Position numbers: made by a program. Positions 12,001 through 39,538 of a stretch of 39,538 nucleotides of DNA are shown here, in pieces (the stretch's first letter is position 1; every line of letters begins with the position of its first letter). Origin of the DNA: Candidatus Izemoplasmatales bacterium (GTDB lineage Bacteria > Bacillota_I > Bacilli_A > Izemoplasmatales > Hujiaoplasmataceae); the NCBI GenBank assembly GCA_050177605.1, contig JBFXGX010000016.1:1-39538 (forward strand), written 5' to 3'.

Positions 12001-15000
12001 GATTGGAATTTCACAACTAAACTTTGGCCGCTTAGCGCTGAAGTAGCTATTCCTGATCCTCGAATTTCTGGTGGTCAATATGGATTCGCACTTGGTAAAT
12101 TATCTGACACCTACGCTTTCTTACAAATGATTACGGATATTAAAACATTCTACTATCAAACCTATGGTGGGGCGATGTCGGATGCTGATGCTGGAAACTT
12201 AGCATCGATTGCTGGATTCTATAATTTAACAGCCCCTGAGGCTCTTCAAGTGGGTGGTTATGTCGGAGCTGGTTACAGCATTCCTCAAGCAGTCAGTGCA
12301 ATTAAAGGTAGCCTTGATTATCCTCAACCACAGTTTATTGAAGTAATCGCTCCTATCGCCTTAACTGGCGCTGCAGGAAATGCTACTGTCTTAATTGAAA
12401 TGTTTAATAAAGAATAAATATAAAAAGTGATGCTTTTAAAAGTATCACTTTTTTTCTTGGAGTAAAAAAATAACGCAATCGACTGATTGCGTTTTTTGAT
12501 TTAAAATGTTAAATAATTGCCTTCCATCTCTAGTTTCGATGCAGCTTCTTCATCAACCATCACAGTAATATCCGGATGAAGTTGTAATATCGCTGCTGGA
12601 ACTTTTCCTCCAACTTCACCATAAGCCATTTGATAAAGGGCATCTGCTTTTGATTTTCCAGAAGCAATCATCAAAATCTTTTTAGAGTACATGATGTTTT
12701 TGATTCCCATCGTAATTGCGTATTGAGGAACTTCTTCTAGGCTATTAAAAAATCGAGCATTATCAATTCTTGTTTGTTCATCGAGTTTGACAATAAACGT
12801 TTGATTCCCTAAGAAACTACCAGGTTCATTAAATCCGATGTGACCATTTTGACCAATCCCTAGAATTTGTAAGTCTCGTTGATTACCAAACATTTTATCA
12901 TTGTATTCTTTGGCAAGTTTTTCCATATTATTTAAATCATTACTTGGGATATTAATATTCTTTGGATTAATATCAATATGATCAAATAAATATTTATGCA
13001 TAAAAGAATAGTAACTTTGAGGATGATCTTTATCGAGGCCAACATATTCATCTAAATTGAATGTCTTAACATCTTTAAAAGAGATAAACCCATCTTCATA
13101 AGCTCTAATTAAGTTTTTATATAATCCTATCGGCGAAGTACCAGTCGCCAGTCCTAAAATAAGGTCTGGTTTTTTGGCCATTTCCTTAATGACGAAAGCT
13201 GCCGCAGCTTTCGAAATCGCATCATAATCTTTGTATTTGAAAATTTGCATTCCTTTTCCCTCTATTCTTTTATACGCTTTTCAAACTCTCTCTTATGTTA
13301 CCATGATTTTCATCTAATATCTCTTTGATTTTATCAGAATCTGCAACTTTCGAAAGGATCGCGAAAATTGCATATTTCACAGAGTTATATTTTTCTAGAT
13401 ATAGTTCTGCAGTCGAACCATCTACCCCAGTCACTTCCATGACAATTTTTCTTGCCCGAGAAACAAGCTTATTATTGGTCATTTGAACATCAACCATAAG
13501 ATTTTCATAAACCTTGCCAAGTTTAATCATTGAAGCGGTAGAAATCATGTTTAAAATCATTTTTTGTGCTGTGCCTGATTTCATTCTTGTCGAACCAGTA
13601 AGCGGTTCTGCGCCAGTAATCGCTTCAATAGGATAGTCTGCGACTTGTGCTATTTTTGAATTATGGCTTGTCGTAATACACCCTGTAATCGCATGAACCG
13701 ATTTAGCATATTCAATCGCACCAATGGCGAAAGGTGTAACACCACTTGCGGCAATACCAATCACAACATCCTTACTTGTTAAGTGATACTCTTTTAAAGC
13801 TACAGCAGCTTCTTCTTTCGAATCTTCTGCGCCTTCAATCGAAAAGCGAAGCGCATGATCTCCACCAGCAATAATGCCAATGACTAATCCAGAATCAACA
13901 CCGAAGGTTGGTGGTACTTCACTCGCGTCAAGTACACCTAGTCTTCCACTTGTCCCAGCACCAACATAAAAGAGTCTTCCACCATTTCTAAAAGCATCGG
14001 TGACTACATCAACGACCTTTGCAATCTGATTAATTGACTTTTCAACAGCAAAAGGAACTTGTTTATCTTCGTTGTTGATGAGACGAAGAATCTCACAAGT
14101 TGAAACAATGTCAATATTTTTCGTATTATGATTTCTTTTCTCTGTCGAAATTTTACTTAGATCTACCATAATGTATTCTCCTTTTTCTGTAACATAGCGA
14201 TATAACAAGCGCCAAAGACTGGCTCAAGATTCACTTCATCAAACGCTAATGGGTATCCAAGCTTAGAAATTTCTTGGATAAGTGTTTCTTTGACAAGAGG
14301 AGCGTTTAGTAAGAAACTTCCTCTAAGTCCGACAAGTACTACTTGATCTTTTCCTAAACGCCTAAGTGCGTTCTGCGCTTGCAGAGCAAGCAGTAATCCT
14401 TCTTGTTTTAATAGTTTTTGAATATATTTATCTTTGAGGGCTAACGTACTTAAGTATTTAGAGAGTCCTGCGATTTCATCTTTATGATGATGATAGACGA
14501 AATCTTTGATCTCTGTATATTCTTTTAACCCGAGATGTTTTAAGACCTTTTTAGAAGAACTTCGGATTGTTTTTTCTCCTTCATATTGGCTAATCATATT
14601 TTTTAAGAAAGTAATCGCAAGATGATAGCCTGAGCCTTCATCCCCCAGTAGTGCTCCATATCCACCGATCATATTCATCGTTCCATCTTTTTCTGTGAAT
14701 AATACGCTACCTGTCCCAGCAAGGATCATTAATGTCGGCAAATCCTGATTTTTTTTAACAGAATATAGACCTAAATAAGCATCGTTTTCGATAAATACTT
14801 TCGCTCCATAACTTTTTTCTAAATTTTCTTGGAGTTCGTGTTTCCGAAGAAAGGACATCACACCAGATAAGCCAAGGATGATTGCTTCAATTTCTTCTTT
14901 ATCGTGACGCTGTAGAAGTAAATCGATTGCCTCAACCACATGTTCGATTGATAATGCAGGATTGACGTTAAAGTTACAAAAACCGCTGAAAGCTTCATCA

Positions 15001-18000
15001 ACTTTATTTTTATTTTGGTCAAATAGGGCGGCTTGTGTTTTCGTCCCACCACCATCGACGCCAATGATGTATTTTTTCATAGCACCATTCCTTTATCTTT
15101 TGGGAGAATTGTTCCTTCCAAATATTCTTTAAAAACTTCAAGTGAGTTTGGTGTGTACTCATAAAACTCTACCACATTTTTTAGTTTAGGTAAAAAATGA
15201 AGGTCATATGGATTTCTCATTGTAAAGACAAATAAATTACCTTGTTCATTCAGCTTTTCCATTAAATGATATTGGCTTGGATATTGATTCGGATTATAGG
15301 ATGCGAAGATAATTTGTTCATATTCTTTTGAAACTCTTAGTACTTTTTTCATTTCTTCTTTTGAGAGTGCAACACTCACAACCATCGATTCAAATGGATG
15401 GCCAATGCCTTTTACCACATCATCAATCGTTTGAAATCCACCTGCTTCATCCGCAATTGTCGTCGCTGCAGGACTAGATGAAATCACGAGCGTTGAGCGA
15501 GAAGGATGAATACATTCACCTTTCACGAGAGTGAAAGCACTCTTCACAACACTTAAGTTAAATGATTTCACTTCTTTGTTATAGAATGCTTTTTCCTTTT
15601 TTTCAAAAGGTGTTGTTAAATCAACTTGTAGATCTTGTTTATACTTTAGAATTCTTTTTACATGCTGATCAACCATCGCTTCATCAATTGTCCCTGCAAG
15701 AATACTCTCTTTTAAATACGTAATTGCTTTGATTTGAAGTTCTTGGTGGTGGCTCACCATCCCAAGATCGGCCCCAGCAAGAAGTGCCATACTAAACCCT
15801 TTTTCTGTTGTGTAATGTTTCTGAATAGCTTTCATTTCAAGACAATCAGTCATCACGAGTCCATCGTATTTCATATCTTCTCTTAATAGTCCAGTTATGC
15901 AGTTCTTTGATAAGGATGTTGGTAGACCATTTTCAGTTAACTCAGGAAAATTAATATGAGCAATCATCAGAGAATGGATCCCTTCTTGAATCGCTTTTTG
16001 AAAAGGAATTAACTCGAAATTCTTTAATTCTTTCACTGTTTTATGGATAACTGGTAGTGAAAGATGAGAATCTGTATGGGTATCCCCATGTCCTGGAAAG
16101 TGTTTGCCACAAGCATAGATACTTTCTTCGAGTCCTCTGACGTAAGGAATACCAAAATCAACGACTTTTTTTGGAGTATCGCCAAAACTTCTGACGCCGA
16201 TGACTGGATTAAGAGGATTATTATTGATATCGAGCGTTGGTGCTAAGTTCAAATTAATCCCTAAGTTCTTTAAAAACTCTCCCATATACTTACCACTAAA
16301 ATAAGCGTTATCGATTTTCTCTGAGGATGTAATCGTCATCGCGCCAGGGAAAAACGGTCCGTCTCCCTTGATTCTCGTGACCATGCCACCTTCTTGATCA
16401 ATCGTAATGAATAAGGGAATGCCAATATGGTATAAAGCCAGTTTTTGTAAGTTTTGGTTGAGTTCATAGAGTTGATGTAAATCACGAACATTTCGTTGAA
16501 ACAAGATCACATTCCCAACTTTATATTTTTGAATCATCTCGATGGCATGATCATTTACCTCTAATGCATCAAAACCAAAGATGAGACATTGTCCAATTTT
16601 TTCATCTAAACTTAAATCTTCAAATCGTTTATTCATATAGATGATATCTCCTTTTTAAATCACTGAAGACCTCTGTGTCCATATGCATATTCATCAGTAA
16701 TTCTCTTACTGGAATTTGATTTTCTCTTAAAAGATTATTACCCGTTAATAGATCGATAAAGGGATGCCCACCTTCTCTAAAAGGCGGAATATAATCAAAT
16801 TCCTTATGTGTTTTTCTAATGTAATCAAATAATAAATATCCTGTTTTTACAGGTTGGAACGAAGCTTCATTCGTTACAACAACCTCGAGTCCATGGCAAA
16901 GTGTATTTTGATGTTTTGAGAATGTTGGAGTAAAGTAGGTTTCTCTGAATAAGACGCCTGTGAGTTTCAATCCATTCATATAGCATACAACGTCCCGGTT
17001 GTTTAAATAAGGACTGCCAATAAAGTGGAATGGCTTGGTTGTTCCTCTCCCTTCAGAAAGGTTCGTACCTTCAAACAAACAAGTAGCGAGGAAAACCAGC
17101 GCAGTTTCAGGCGTTGGAATATTTGGACTCGGAAGAACCCAAGGAAGCCCCGTTTCTCTAAAACTCATTTTCCGCTCATAGTTCTCCATCGGAAGGATAT
17201 GAATATCCGCATGGATCTCAAATTCATTGTTAAAGAGTAATGCCAGTTCTCCAATCGTTAATCCATATCGTTGTGGAATAGAATAATATCCTACAAAAGA
17301 ACGATAATCAAGTTGTAATAAATTTCCTTCCACAAGATCCGCTCCCACAGGATTAGGATGGTCAATGATAATCATTTGTTTCCCGTATTCTTTACAGGAT
17401 TCCATGAGATAAGACATCGAATATAAATAAGTATAAAAACGAGCCCCCACATCAGCGATATCAAAAACAAGCACATCAAATAAATCCATCATTTCTTTAC
17501 TTGGATGGCGAGTCGCCCCATATAAAGAATAAACATGGAGATTGGTTGCTTCATCCAAATAACTTTCAGCATGAACACCGGCTTGTAAGTCACCTCTCAC
17601 ACCATGTTCAGGTGCAAATAATGCGACGAGATTCACTTTTTCTTTTAGGATATCAATAGTCGAAATTAAGGCTGAATTAACACCAGTAGGATTGGTCATC
17701 AGGCCAACTCTCTTTCCTTCAAACAAAGGAAGATAATCTTCAAAATGATCCATAGCTAAGAGGACTTTCATAGGTTCACGCTTTCTGCAAAATGAGTAAT
17801 TTTTCTCGTTAATAGGACAATGATTGACCAAGGACCAGTTAGTCCAACAAGAAGGAATACCATCGATGTCAATCCATTCGGGTAAAACATCAATAGGACG
17901 GGTAAAAGGGTGACAAAGAATAATACGAATGTGGTAATAAAGTATTTACCAGCTAAATAAAAAGCAAATTTAATCGTTTTAAGAAAGGTTGTTTTTTCCT

Positions 18001-39000: not shown

Positions 39001-39538
39001 CTACGTAGGTTTCTCCGATTTGACACACAGAGACACAATCACCATTCAAGTATTCCTCGCCGATTTCACAGACTGAGACACAATCTCCATCTACGTAGGT
39101 TTCTCCAATCTGACACACTGAAACACATTCACCGTTCACATTTTCTTCGCCGATTTCACAGGAAAGTTGTTCTTTCTCAATGAGACTTTCCCAAGGGAAA
39201 GTCACATATTCTGGCCAGTAATAATCACTTAATCTCTCTAAAAACTGAACGACTTCAGTATCTGTACTGTTTAAAGTTCGATAACTAAAGAATGAACTTC
39301 CTATAATAGCGTCGTACTGAGAAATATATCGTAACTGTTCAGGTAATTCATTCACATCTGTCCAAGTATCATCATCATATCTGTAAAAACCATGACCAAT
39401 GATTAAATCAACGTTATAGGTATCACATAAATCTGCCCACCAGTCTACTAAGTCTGCGAATGGTGCACTCGAATGATCAAATTGCCAATAGAGTTGCGGA
39501 AGAATATAATCAACCCATCCTTCCATCACCCATTTTCT

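Follow-up and report, generated by a model that had tools for sequence, protein, structure and literature searches.

A gene cluster that probably lets a wall-less Izemoplasmatales bacterium feed on the peptidoglycan of other bacteria

A gene cluster in a Candidatus Izemoplasmatales bacterium probably lets this wall-less organism feed on the peptidoglycan of other bacteria; we put the probability of this reading at about 0.8. The host appears to be a free-living bacterium without peptidoglycan synthesis but with a full route for consuming foreign peptidoglycan. A preliminary description of this DNA had proposed as much, and the core of that proposal finds support in the families to which the proteins belong, their location, a conserved order of the genes and the order-wide lack of FtsW. 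The individual steps set out below we infer from homology, from where the proteins lie and from a gene order that is conserved. The import machinery of the cluster has no earlier description.

The window is a contig of 39,538 nucleotides (C16), whose minus strand at C16:12501-39538 carries the downstream 27 kb of the cluster; the upstream 14 kb form contig C33. Because the ends of the two contigs share 127 identical bases, with the reading frame running through the junction, and because relatives show the same order, we regard them as one cluster of about 41 kb with 28 genes, all co-directional. In 5/5 relatives DUF5696 has AnmK 17-24 kb upstream of it, and on the 342-kb contig of one relative the genes run LctBCD, RpiR, AnmK, BadF/GH4, GHL10, double GHL10, PF00144, amidase, 846-aa protein, binding protein. 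ORFs, Pfam and NCBIfam place the previously named C16 genes where they had been reported, on the minus strand (Table 1). The genes assigned to C33 are likewise there (PIG-L, ETF-beta, ETF-alpha, FAD-oxidase, RpiR and AnmK), but they are the upstream part of the same cluster rather than a separate second locus.

Table 1. Features of the cluster within the window, from upstream to downstream
Feature	Position	Strand	Evidence
Double-GHL10 secreted protein, C-terminal 280 aa	38696..39538	-	PF02638 tail; cut by contig end
Beta-lactamase-fold serine hydrolase, AmiE/PBP4B-like, 349 aa (g01146)	37647..38696	-	PF00144 170 bits
Lipoprotein N-acetylmuramoyl-L-alanine amidase, 1093 aa, Big_2 domains	34369..37650	-	Amidase_2 69.9 bits, Big_2
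Surface protein, 846 aa, signal sequence and C-terminal membrane helix	31685..34225	-	Homologues, predicted model
Terminator-like hairpin behind 846-aa gene	31652..31677	-	11-pair stem and T run; consensus match only
Promoter-like site	31547-31520	-	10/12 promoter match; consensus match only
Lipoprotein solute-binding protein, 563 aa, Ig-like domain	29810..31501	-	SBP_bac_1, Bact_surface_Ig-like; lipobox LVGC
Membrane-anchored solute-binding protein, 975 aa	26817..29744	-	SBP_bac_1 72.2 bits; binding domain 579-869
ABC permease pair 1, 310 aa and 290 aa	25027..26824	-	BPD_transp_1; UgpA/UgpE- and MalF/MalG-like
NHL/TPR surface protein, 491 aa, C-terminal membrane helix	23542..25017	-	NHL and TPR matches
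Yip1-domain membrane protein, 213 aa	22911..23552	-	PF04893 45.1 bits; six hydrophobic segments
Membrane-anchored DUF5696 protein, 858 aa	20332..22908	-	PF18952 496.9 bits
ABC permease pair 2, 316 aa and 339 aa	18413..20339	-	BPD_transp_1
DUF624/MusI-family membrane protein, 211 aa	17768..18403	-	PF04854; NF052431 MusI_fam 69 bits, under cut-off
NamZ, exo-beta-N-acetylmuramidase	16629..17831	-	NamZ_N 271.8 bits, NamZ_C 143.9 bits
GH3 beta-N-acetylhexosaminidase, NagZ-like	15077..16636	-	PF00933 277.7 bits
BadF/BcrAD-family sugar kinase, 305 aa	14163..15080	-	PF01869 79.8 bits
MurQ, MurNAc-6-phosphate etherase	13270..14208	-	TIGR00274 373.9 bits vs cut-off 302
NagB, glucosamine-6-phosphate deaminase	12501..13250	-	TIGR00502 288.9 bits vs cut-off 236.9
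Two-way terminator-like hairpin, end of cluster	12472..12493	.	9-pair stem, T runs on both strands

The gene order of the window is kept in 14/14 related loci that reach past DUF5696. Of the 158 genomes of the order, the present one included, 23 have NamZ_N above its cut-off, as do two of the four others of the genus; for the order, 19 of 157 had been counted earlier. The cluster is also found in walled relatives, so it was not invented by the wall-less lineage and is not tied to wall loss.

Outside the cell, the lipoprotein amidase (lipobox IVAC) would remove stem peptides. Its Amidase_2 domain, residues 878-1011, matches XlyA (3rdr; E 7.7e-24) with identical metal and catalytic His, Glu, His and Cys positions, which bears out the likeness noted before. 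The gene g01147, formerly called a YngK-like hydrolase, is instead the tail of a secreted double-GHL10 protein of 1355 aa with a signal-like N-terminus. Its first 1117 aa are encoded at C33:12838-16188, and the joined ORF matches a single ORF of a relative over residues 1-1353 of 1355 at 63% identity. A further, signal-less GHL10 protein of 399 aa matches Cwp19 of Clostridioides difficile (5oq2; E 8.2e-85). Judged by sequence, both g01147 and two further GHL10 domains are akin to this lytic transglycosylase, whose products are described as 1,6-anhydro-muropeptides (PMC6016235). The relationship would supply the glycan-cutting step, with the secreted protein cleaving glycan strands to leave 1,6-anhydro-MurNAc ends, and would explain the source of anhydro-MurNAc for AnmK. 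Cwp19 itself is described as an autolysin held by CWB2 repeats (PMC6016235), whereas neither GHL10 protein here carries wall-binding repeats. The 846-aa protein, probably a substrate holder, has no match in Pfam or NCBIfam but 181 homologues, the named ones in Tenericutes, Izemoplasmatales and Acholeplasmataceae; residues 301-735 are predicted to form Ig-like or CBM-like beta-sandwiches (model pLDDT 79.9), and the fold of the model matches solely tandem beta-sandwich proteins.

Such enzymes could instead serve mainly as a weapon, the amidase and lytic transglycosylase lysing live walled neighbours for their contents, with sugar catabolism a by-product and the wall-less cell immune to the lytic enzymes it makes. 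In favour of this are the surface position of the lipoprotein amidase and the signal sequence of the double-GHL10 protein; moreover, Cwp19 is reported to bring about autolysis (PMC6016235) and DNA degradation has been described for Izemoplasma relatives (PMC8397711). We nevertheless consider this unlikely, since 16 of the genes, the 563-aa binding protein through NagB, make up a unit of import and catabolism in fixed order, and since walled relatives with the same cluster would be endangered by it. The two readings overlap, and a weapon does not exclude feeding.

For feeding, oligosaccharides would enter through the two binding proteins and two permease pairs, energized by a MalK/UgpC-type ATPase encoded outside the cluster (C2:97533-98660; NF008653, 485.5 bits, cut-off 432). 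Their partner would be a membrane unit of the NHL/TPR protein (hydrophobic segments at 1 and 453), the Yip1 protein and DUF5696. Hydrophobic segments stand at the N-termini of DUF5696, the 975-aa binding protein, the NHL/TPR protein and the 846-aa protein. This uptake module (g01135-g01143) is present as first described but is not specific to the route: it is one of four paralogous copies in the genome, the other three lying on other contigs, headed by paralogues of the 975-aa binding protein (979-1023 aa) and having NHL/TPR and Yip1 joined in one fusion. It looks to be a generic unit with copies for different glycans.

The predicted DUF5696 model (pLDDT 82.3, pTM 0.83) points to a GH129-like glycosidase fold. 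Foldseek placed Zobellia 3,6-anhydro-D-galactosidase first (5opq, E 2.2e-31, target TM 0.67), followed by GH129 NagBb of Bifidobacterium (5wzn), GH101, GH36 and GH31; the GH129 structures (5opq/8rzk, 5wzn) are the nearest solved folds, at E 2e-31 to 1e-21 and target TM 0.66-0.68, although identity is just 10-12%. A profile match to 8rzk reached E 4e-4. GH129 enzymes are soluble alpha-glycosidases, whereas DUF5696 is membrane-tethered and always stands beside the Yip1/NHL unit and ABC permeases. Alpha bonds are absent from peptidoglycan. The alpha-glycosidase likeness, and the occurrence of the DUF5696 family in alpha- and beta-glucan modules, count against a clear fit of this protein in the route. 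Together with the beta-glucan and alpha-glucan enzymes that adjoin the paralogous modules, they would suit a module importing a different glycan and placed among peptidoglycan genes by chance. That seems to us improbable: this copy is flanked by NamZ-NagZ-kinase-MurQ in 11/14 related loci, and the module by NamZ-NagZ-kinase in 7/16 regions of other families, two wall-less and one walled among them, and the cluster holds no second transporter.

Import is indeed what the feeding route demands. NamZ, the NagZ-like enzyme, the kinase, MurQ, NagB and the PF00144 protein show no N-terminal signal or hydrophobic segment, in agreement with what had been said of NamZ, NagZ and the C16 kinase. Translation of NamZ likely starts at the Met at 17771, and in 14/14 related loci a signal peptide for NamZ and NagZ has no room. 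Both enzymes are thus predicted to be cytoplasmic, so that oligosaccharides must be imported. The earlier NagZ assignment holds at the level of GH3; the NagZ equivalog NF003740 scored 187.6, below its cut-off of 207. Inside, the signal-less GHL10 enzyme, NamZ and NagZ would dismantle the chains, and g01146 would clear remaining peptides. The latter had been called DD-carboxypeptidase-like; with motifs SLTK at 58 and HTG at 295, and PBP4B as its top NCBIfam match (140.8 bits, far under the cut-off of 385), it fits better among the AmiE/PBP4B-type proteins described for MurNAc operons (PMC10653849, PMC5061867). The BadF/BcrAD protein, a candidate MurNAc/GlcNAc kinase whose specificity is taken from context alone, and AnmK would yield MurNAc-6-phosphate, which MurQ (likely start Met at 14169) would split into GlcNAc-6-phosphate and D-lactate.

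The next step would fall to the PIG-L deacetylase, with a ROK-like kinase as its partner, in place of NagA, for which the genome gave 0 matches. PIG-L orthologues occur in 30 and NagA in 68 of 158 genomes of the order but both together in only three; the two are almost mutually exclusive. Among the 23 genomes with NamZ, PIG-L occurs without NagA in 17, NagA in two, and neither in four, which are 53-90% complete. The substitution, already assumed in the preliminary description, has thereby gained real support from gene content. Counting against it are the four genomes with neither gene, and the fact that PIG-L enzymes are known for acting on C1-substituted substrates and are not known to act on GlcNAc-6-phosphate. 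NagB would then give fructose-6-phosphate, and an ETF-linked, Lct-type FAD oxidase would oxidize D-lactate; the neighbourhood on which that link was based recurs, LctBCD adjoining RpiR here and in 2/3 relatives examined at that place. An RpiR/MurR-type regulator lies mid-cluster.

The host's lack of wall synthesis, as claimed before, withstood renewed searching. Six-frame searches of the whole genome gave 0 matches for PF00905, PF00953, PF01098, PF00912 and PF02873, with 10-12 of 14 control genomes matched; the genome has no match to PBP, MraY, FtsW, transglycosylase or MurB families, and its sole Mur_ligase_M match is FolC (TIGR01499, 377.9 bits). FtsW is present in 2/158 genomes of the order (1/62 among high-quality ones), and one genome, G144 (99% complete, two contigs), holds NamZ, DUF5696 and PIG-L while lacking both FtsW and NagA. 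That the organism is walled and recycles its own peptidoglycan, its synthesis genes missed or the contig misbinned, could draw on an assembly of 89.16% completeness and 1.97% contamination and on the walled carriers of the cluster, but is highly improbable, and already refuted for the order, given the five missing families, these FtsW counts, a locus GC of 0.34-0.38 against 0.344 for the genome, and three paralogous modules on other contigs.

Among the nearest known systems, anhydromuropeptide recycling in E. coli includes AmpG and AmpD. As described (PMC5061867), it has in common with our cluster a cytoplasmic NagZ, MurQ and an AnmK acting on 1,6-anhydro-MurNAc from lytic transglycosylases, and the E. 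coli murQ-murP-PBP4B operon likewise sets a PBP4B-like gene beside murQ. Here, however, the predicted lytic transglycosylases are of GHL10 type, ABC import would take the place of AmpG, NamZ is present, NagA would be replaced, and the purpose would be feeding rather than recycling. The B. subtilis murQ-murR-murP-amiE-nagZ-namZ operon, as reported (PMC8054146, PMC5061867), similarly clusters NamZ, NagZ, a PF00144 AmiE-type protein, MurQ and an RpiR/MurR-type regulator. There the three hydrolases are secreted, whereas their counterparts here lack signals; MurNAc enters through the MurP phosphotransferase system, in contrast to ABC permeases with two binding proteins and phosphorylation by kinases; and B. 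subtilis recycles its own wall, whereas this host has none to recycle.

Among Mollicutes, the equally wall-less Spiroplasma is credited from genomes with MurQ-based MurNAc catabolism; the cited accounts (PMC4607517, PMC12453411) give monosaccharide uptake by MurP with MurQ, NagA and NagB only, and no amidase, lytic transglycosylase, NamZ, NagZ, AnmK or oligosaccharide importer. Tannerella forsythia is described as likewise taking neighbours' peptidoglycan fragments with NamZ-family enzymes (NamZ1/NamZ2), salvaging MurNAc for its own wall (bioRxiv 10.1101/2021.12.02.470905), whereas here the sugar would be burnt via MurQ and NagB.

Overall, promoter- and terminator-like sites were no more numerous than in shuffled sequence. 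The two-way hairpin at the end of the cluster sits between NagB and a convergent gene ending at 12417.

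The finding of a putative route for peptidoglycan use is real, coherent and conserved. In an assembly of 1.94 Mb, 66 contigs and a GC content of 0.344, the window is the entire 39,538-base contig C16, on which 19 minus-strand ORFs, overlapping or narrowly spaced, run from 12501 to the contig end. Pfam and NCBIfam bore out all of the gene content named in the preliminary description. That description had also placed a separate second locus on contig C33; the overlap of the contig ends and the gene order in relatives make it part of the same cluster. Read on the opposite strand, the window's terminal 127 bases match those of C33 exactly, the reading frame is continuous, and joining the two contigs in silico yields a secreted protein of 1355 aa that has two GHL10 domains. 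Residues 1-1353 of this joined ORF align to one ORF in a relative whose contig is 342 kb long, where the order is LctB, LctC, LctD, RpiR, AnmK, BadF/GH4, GHL10, the double-GHL10 protein, the PF00144 protein, the amidase, the 846-aa protein and a binding protein. Haploplasma modicum carries RpiR, AnmK, GHL10, the double-GHL10 protein, the PF00144 protein and the amidase, and in all five relatives tested one contig carries both AnmK and DUF5696, with AnmK 17-24 kb upstream.

A hairpin and a promoter-like site ahead of the 563-aa binding protein suggest, as consensus matches, that the genes from this protein to NagB may form one transcription unit; the total counts of such promoter- and terminator-like sites are no higher than in shuffles, and the sites given here are those that fall in gaps between genes. 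One study of landfill metagenomes contains DNA of the cluster stretch, in two of its runs, with no RNA run among those listed.

Features of the joined cluster, its surroundings and the compared loci
Feature	Location	Strand	Description
ABC proteins	window 3555-7383	plus	741-aa protein, TMEM164-family membrane domain joined to ABC ATPase domain; then 536-aa ABC_tran_2-like protein
1525-aa protein	window 7840-12417	plus	convergent with cluster; four Listeria-Bacteroides repeats, pectate-lyase-like adhesive domain
Hairpin at cluster's end	window 12472-12493		terminator-like, two-way
Sugar catabolism genes	window	minus	NagB, MurQ, BadF/BcrAD-family kinase, GH3 NagZ-like enzyme, NamZ (Pfam/NCBIfam)
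Membrane genes	window	minus	DUF624/MusI protein, two BPD_transp_1 permease pairs, DUF5696, Yip1-domain protein, NHL/TPR protein (Pfam/NCBIfam)
Binding proteins	window	minus	975 aa and 563 aa; also family-less 846-aa protein
Contig-end genes	window	minus	1093-aa Amidase_2 protein, PF00144 protein, truncated GHL10 protein
Promoter-like site	window 31547-31520		
Hairpin	window 31677-31652		terminator-like
Joined cluster	C33:1777 to window 12501		28 co-directional genes, about 41 kb
BadF/GH4 fusion	C33:9824-11632		602 aa, between AnmK and GHL10
Double-GHL10 protein, C33 part	C33:12838-16188		1117 aa
Module copy	C2:83180-94548		neighbours GH16, GH30, GH5, GH3, GH94-like (beta-glucan enzymes)
Module copy	C6:59567-70529		neighbours GH13 enzymes with CBM26, PUD, CBM48 (alpha-glucan)
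Module copy	C9:48570-59407		neighbours GH94, GH3, PF10091, LacI regulator
MalK/UgpC-type ATPase	C2:97533-98660		one copy above cut-off
NAGPA genes	L038:3240-4832; L040:4327-5823		two relatives
FtsW match	G012:C306:469-1524		contig of about 1.5 kb

Our inference of every function in the route draws on sequence, predicted structure and neighbouring genes. Two proteins, the amidase and the 563-aa binding protein, have a lipobox; four others (DUF5696, the 975-aa binding protein, the NHL/TPR protein, the 846-aa protein) carry a hydrophobic segment at the N-terminus. The Amidase_2 domain scored 69.9 bits against a cut-off of 26 and matched Bacillus subtilis XlyA (3rdr) with E 7.7e-24; all four positions of the zinc-ligand and catalytic set (His, Glu, His, Cys) are identical.

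For the GHL10 proteins, the earlier label of a YngK-like hydrolase was too narrow. PF02638 scored 224.5 bits in the 399-aa protein encoded on C33 and 402.9 bits in the C33 part of the longer one, and the 399-aa protein matched Clostridioides difficile Cwp19 (5oq2) with E 8.2e-85. The GHL10 domain of Cwp19 is described as a lytic transglycosylase that produces 1,6-anhydro-muropeptides (PMC6016235). As predicted lytic transglycosylases, the GHL10 proteins would supply the glycan-cutting step absent from the preliminary description, and because cutting of the Cwp19 type gives 1,6-anhydro ends, the position of AnmK two genes upstream of GHL10 makes sense. A signal sequence is present on the 1355-aa copy and not on the 399-aa copy. 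In the longer protein the two GHL10 domains are separated by OmpL47-type beta-barrel domains, which score 103.8 bits for NF047446 (cut-off 40), and by a domain resembling the chitobiase C-terminus. Escherichia coli DigH is also a GHL10 protein; the text of PMC12288456 leaves its family unnamed, and no weight is placed on DigH here.

The 846-aa protein has 181 homologues, the named ones all from the same lineages. Residues 301-735 of its model (pLDDT 79.9) matched only tandem beta-sandwich proteins of the Ig-like or CBM-like kind in Foldseek, VIA-align and the protein atlas, and residues 28-300 gave no usable match in these three. With low confidence, we take it to be a surface protein that may hold the substrate.

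The next steps would take place inside the cell. NamZ scored 271.8 bits for PF07075 (cut-off 26.9) and 143.9 bits for PF20732 (cut-off 25). In each of the 14 related loci the reading frames of NamZ and NagZ cannot accommodate a signal peptide, and none of the cytoplasmic enzymes has a hydrophobic N-terminus. With NamZ and NagZ in the cytoplasm, oligosaccharides must therefore enter the cell. In B. subtilis, by contrast, both NamZ and NagZ are secreted (PMC8054146), so that the window NamZ differs from the founding member in location while belonging to the same family. MurQ (TIGR00274, 373.9 bits, cut-off 302), NagB and both NamZ domains all exceeded curated cut-offs. The assignment of NagZ stood for its GH3 N-terminal domain, clear at 277.7 bits, and failed for the equivalog NF003740 (187.6 bits, cut-off 207); judged by context, the enzyme probably works like NagZ. 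AnmK scored 437 bits for NF007142 (cut-off 435) and 310 bits for PF03702.

The PF00144 protein (170.3 bits; motifs SLTK at 58 and HTG at 295) has PBP4B as its best model, at 140.8 bits far under the cut-off of 385. In descriptions of murQ operons, B. subtilis AmiE, a MurNAc-L-alanine amidase, is listed under PF00144, and PBP4B is the last gene of the E. coli operon (PMC10653849, PMC5061867). Family and operon context thus point to an AmiE-like function for the window protein.

The BadF-type kinase and AnmK would both lead to MurNAc-6-phosphate, and the products of the MurQ reaction are GlcNAc-6-phosphate and D-lactate (PMC5061867). Genes for ETF-beta, ETF-alpha and an FAD-oxidase lie directly upstream of RpiR in this genome and in two of three relatives examined there; this neighbourhood and the earlier Swiss-Prot matches to Lct proteins suggest that they may serve the D-lactate. 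The protein encoded between AnmK and GHL10, which joins a BadF-type kinase-like domain to a GH4 glycosidase, is also present in one relative (locus L020) and missing from H. modicum. A possible activity is phosphorylation of a disaccharide followed by its cleavage; we know of no kinase-GH4 fusion enzyme in peptidoglycan catabolism.

A search for NagA of the TIGR00221 type gave no match across the genome. Incompleteness alone as the cause is rejected, since four of the five locus-bearing relatives likewise lack NagA above cut-off, H. modicum being the exception, and the pattern across the order agrees. Those four relatives carry an orthologue of the C33 PIG-L protein (59-67% identical), which H. 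modicum lacks. The PIG-L protein scored 59 bits for PF02585 (cut-off 28.2) and contains an AHQDD stretch, which we take to be the metal motif of the PIG-L/LmbE family. Across 158 genomes of the order, 30 hold PIG-L orthologues, 68 hold NagA and three hold both; among 23 NamZ holders, 17 have PIG-L without NagA, two NagA only and four neither, the last being 53-90% complete. Fisher's test gave p values of 2.7e-5 and 2.5e-10, both exaggerated in significance, as kin genomes do not count as independent samples. This nearly exclusive distribution fits the assumption already made in the preliminary description, and the PIG-L deacetylase probably replaces NagA.

In four of four relatives PIG-L is paired with the 471-aa protein encoded upstream of it, which the protein atlas groups with sugar kinases of the ROK type (score 0.99, TM 0.95). 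The pair adjoins, in relatives, GHL10 and GH84, or GH73 and NAGPA, or LctBCD-RpiR. NAGPA, a phosphodiester glycosidase, might cleave the GlcNAc-1-phosphate bond by which teichoic acids are attached to MurNAc.

That the organism lacks genes for wall synthesis, as claimed before, held up in six-frame searches of the assembly, in which Transpeptidase, MraY, FtsW/RodA, Transgly and MurB_C gave no match, with 10-12 of 14 control genomes matched. The sole Mur_ligase_M match in the genome is FolC. Since the assembly is 89% complete, we examined its kin for FtsW; two of the order's 158 genomes hold it, and one of the 62 of high quality. One match, in a genome 87% complete with 3% contamination (G012), is likely a contaminant. 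The closest named DUF5696 holders are labelled Izemoplasmatales, Tenericutes, Acholeplasmataceae and H. modicum ATCC 29102, and the orders of these holders are described as being without peptidoglycan (PMC10868615, PMC8397711). Therefore, the missing synthesis genes are genuine, yet they are an already known state of the lineage and no surprise by themselves.

Sixteen related loci contain DUF5696; 14 extend past it, and all 14 keep the window order. The stretch from the 563-aa binding protein to NamZ is covered by 11 loci, 11 reach MurQ and nine reach NagB. NamZ occurs in 13 of the 34 genera of the order, and the route is therefore patchy. From other families of the class we chose 16 regions, including a misplaced one (L052) that gave no matches, and in seven the module is followed by NamZ, NagZ and the kinase. 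Five of the seven come from families without FtsW (0/30 and 0/7 sampled genomes). The other two come from family f7, where all 12 sampled genomes hold FtsW. FtsW is found as well in two further DUF5696-rich families (f19, 22/23; f26, 3/3), and with two f7 loci carrying the peptidoglycan-type cluster we reject a restriction of the module to wall-less lineages. The cluster is common to walled kin, and in wall-less lines its substrate can only be foreign peptidoglycan. Two other loci of the walled family f7 (L043, L044) hold a further module type between two distant GHL10-like genes (22-23% identity), with no NamZ found in the 20 kb examined.

The newest element is the DUF5696/Yip1/NHL import module, whose eight genes start at the 975-aa binding protein and finish with the second permease pair. 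Three more copies, 24-43% identical, lie elsewhere in the genome beside other glycan enzymes, and the module is thus generic, the cluster holding its peptidoglycan copy. NHL/TPR and Yip1 are fused as a single ORF in the C2 and C9 copies, and in the C6 copy NHL/TPR, Yip1 and DUF5696 form one 1335-aa ORF, which argues that the three make up a single membrane unit. Of a CUT1-type ABC importer we found the binding protein, two BPD_transp_1 permeases and, outside the cluster, an ATPase of the MalK/UgpC type.

The DUF5696 model (pLDDT 82.3, pTM 0.83) has a multi-domain fold common to GH129 glycoside hydrolases. In Foldseek it was nearest to GH129 (5opq, E 2.2e-31, probability 1.00, target TM 0.67; also NagBb), followed by GH101, GH36 and GH31, and the sequence profile found the same Zobellia protein with E 4e-4. 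Three aspartates do not vary across the four paralogues: D318, which lies in a PDGSG stretch, D344 and D580. We considered DUF5696 as the missing endo-muramidase. The nearest folds are alpha-glycosidases; peptidoglycan has no alpha bond, and the module copies also adjoin beta-glucan enzymes. DUF5696 occurs in all four modules whatever the glycan, and the GHL10 proteins would do the cutting; we therefore reject an endo-muramidase as the main reading.

The giant binding protein, permease pair, NHL/TPR-Yip1, membrane-tethered GH129-like DUF5696 and second permease pair may together be an undescribed modular machine for glycan capture and import, whose peptidoglycan copy would be the first known importer of long peptide-free peptidoglycan oligosaccharides. 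We give this reading a probability of about 0.5. If it is true, the module would be, in bacteria without an outer membrane, a counterpart of the polysaccharide utilisation loci of Bacteroidota.

Wherever bacteria die, much organic matter is left as peptidoglycan, and to our knowledge little is known of its anaerobic consumers. Here a wall-less lineage retains a 41-kb cluster that could serve only foreign peptidoglycan, which would provide free-living Izemoplasmatales and Acholeplasmataceae with a concrete niche besides DNA degradation. The gene families are known ones, apparently arranged for oligomer import and cytoplasmic breakdown in a wall-less organism, with replacement of NagA probable. 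In the main texts of literature on Izemoplasmatales and Acholeplasmataceae we found no route from polymer to fructose-6-phosphate. Searches for Acholeplasma with MurQ found nothing, and those for MurQ in Tenericutes, for peptidoglycan with Izemoplasma, and for N-acetylmuramic acid and peptidoglycan degradation in Mollicutes found no account of the route. Use of MurNAc through murP/murQ has been noted from wall-less Spiroplasma genomes (PMC4607517, PMC12453411). Leads that follow from the cluster are a NamZ route in the cytoplasm supplied by imported oligosaccharides, a role for DUF5696, the coupling of AnmK to lytic transglycosylases of the GHL10 type in a lineage derived from Gram-positives, and a PIG-L deacetylase apparently standing in for NagA. 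Cultured holders exist in H. modicum ATCC 29102 and in Mariniplasma anaerobium, which has homologues of DUF5696 and the 846-aa protein.

Literature searches under the names DUF5696 and PF18952 found nothing. Of the order's 158 genomes, 119 have the domain above cut-off, as do 145 of the 399 genomes sampled from the class; walled and wall-less families are both among the holders. Close homologues also lie on short contigs in genomes labelled Halieaceae, Rhizobium and Bacteroidetes (L005, L017, P0004); these contigs are probably misbinned and do not reflect gene transfer.
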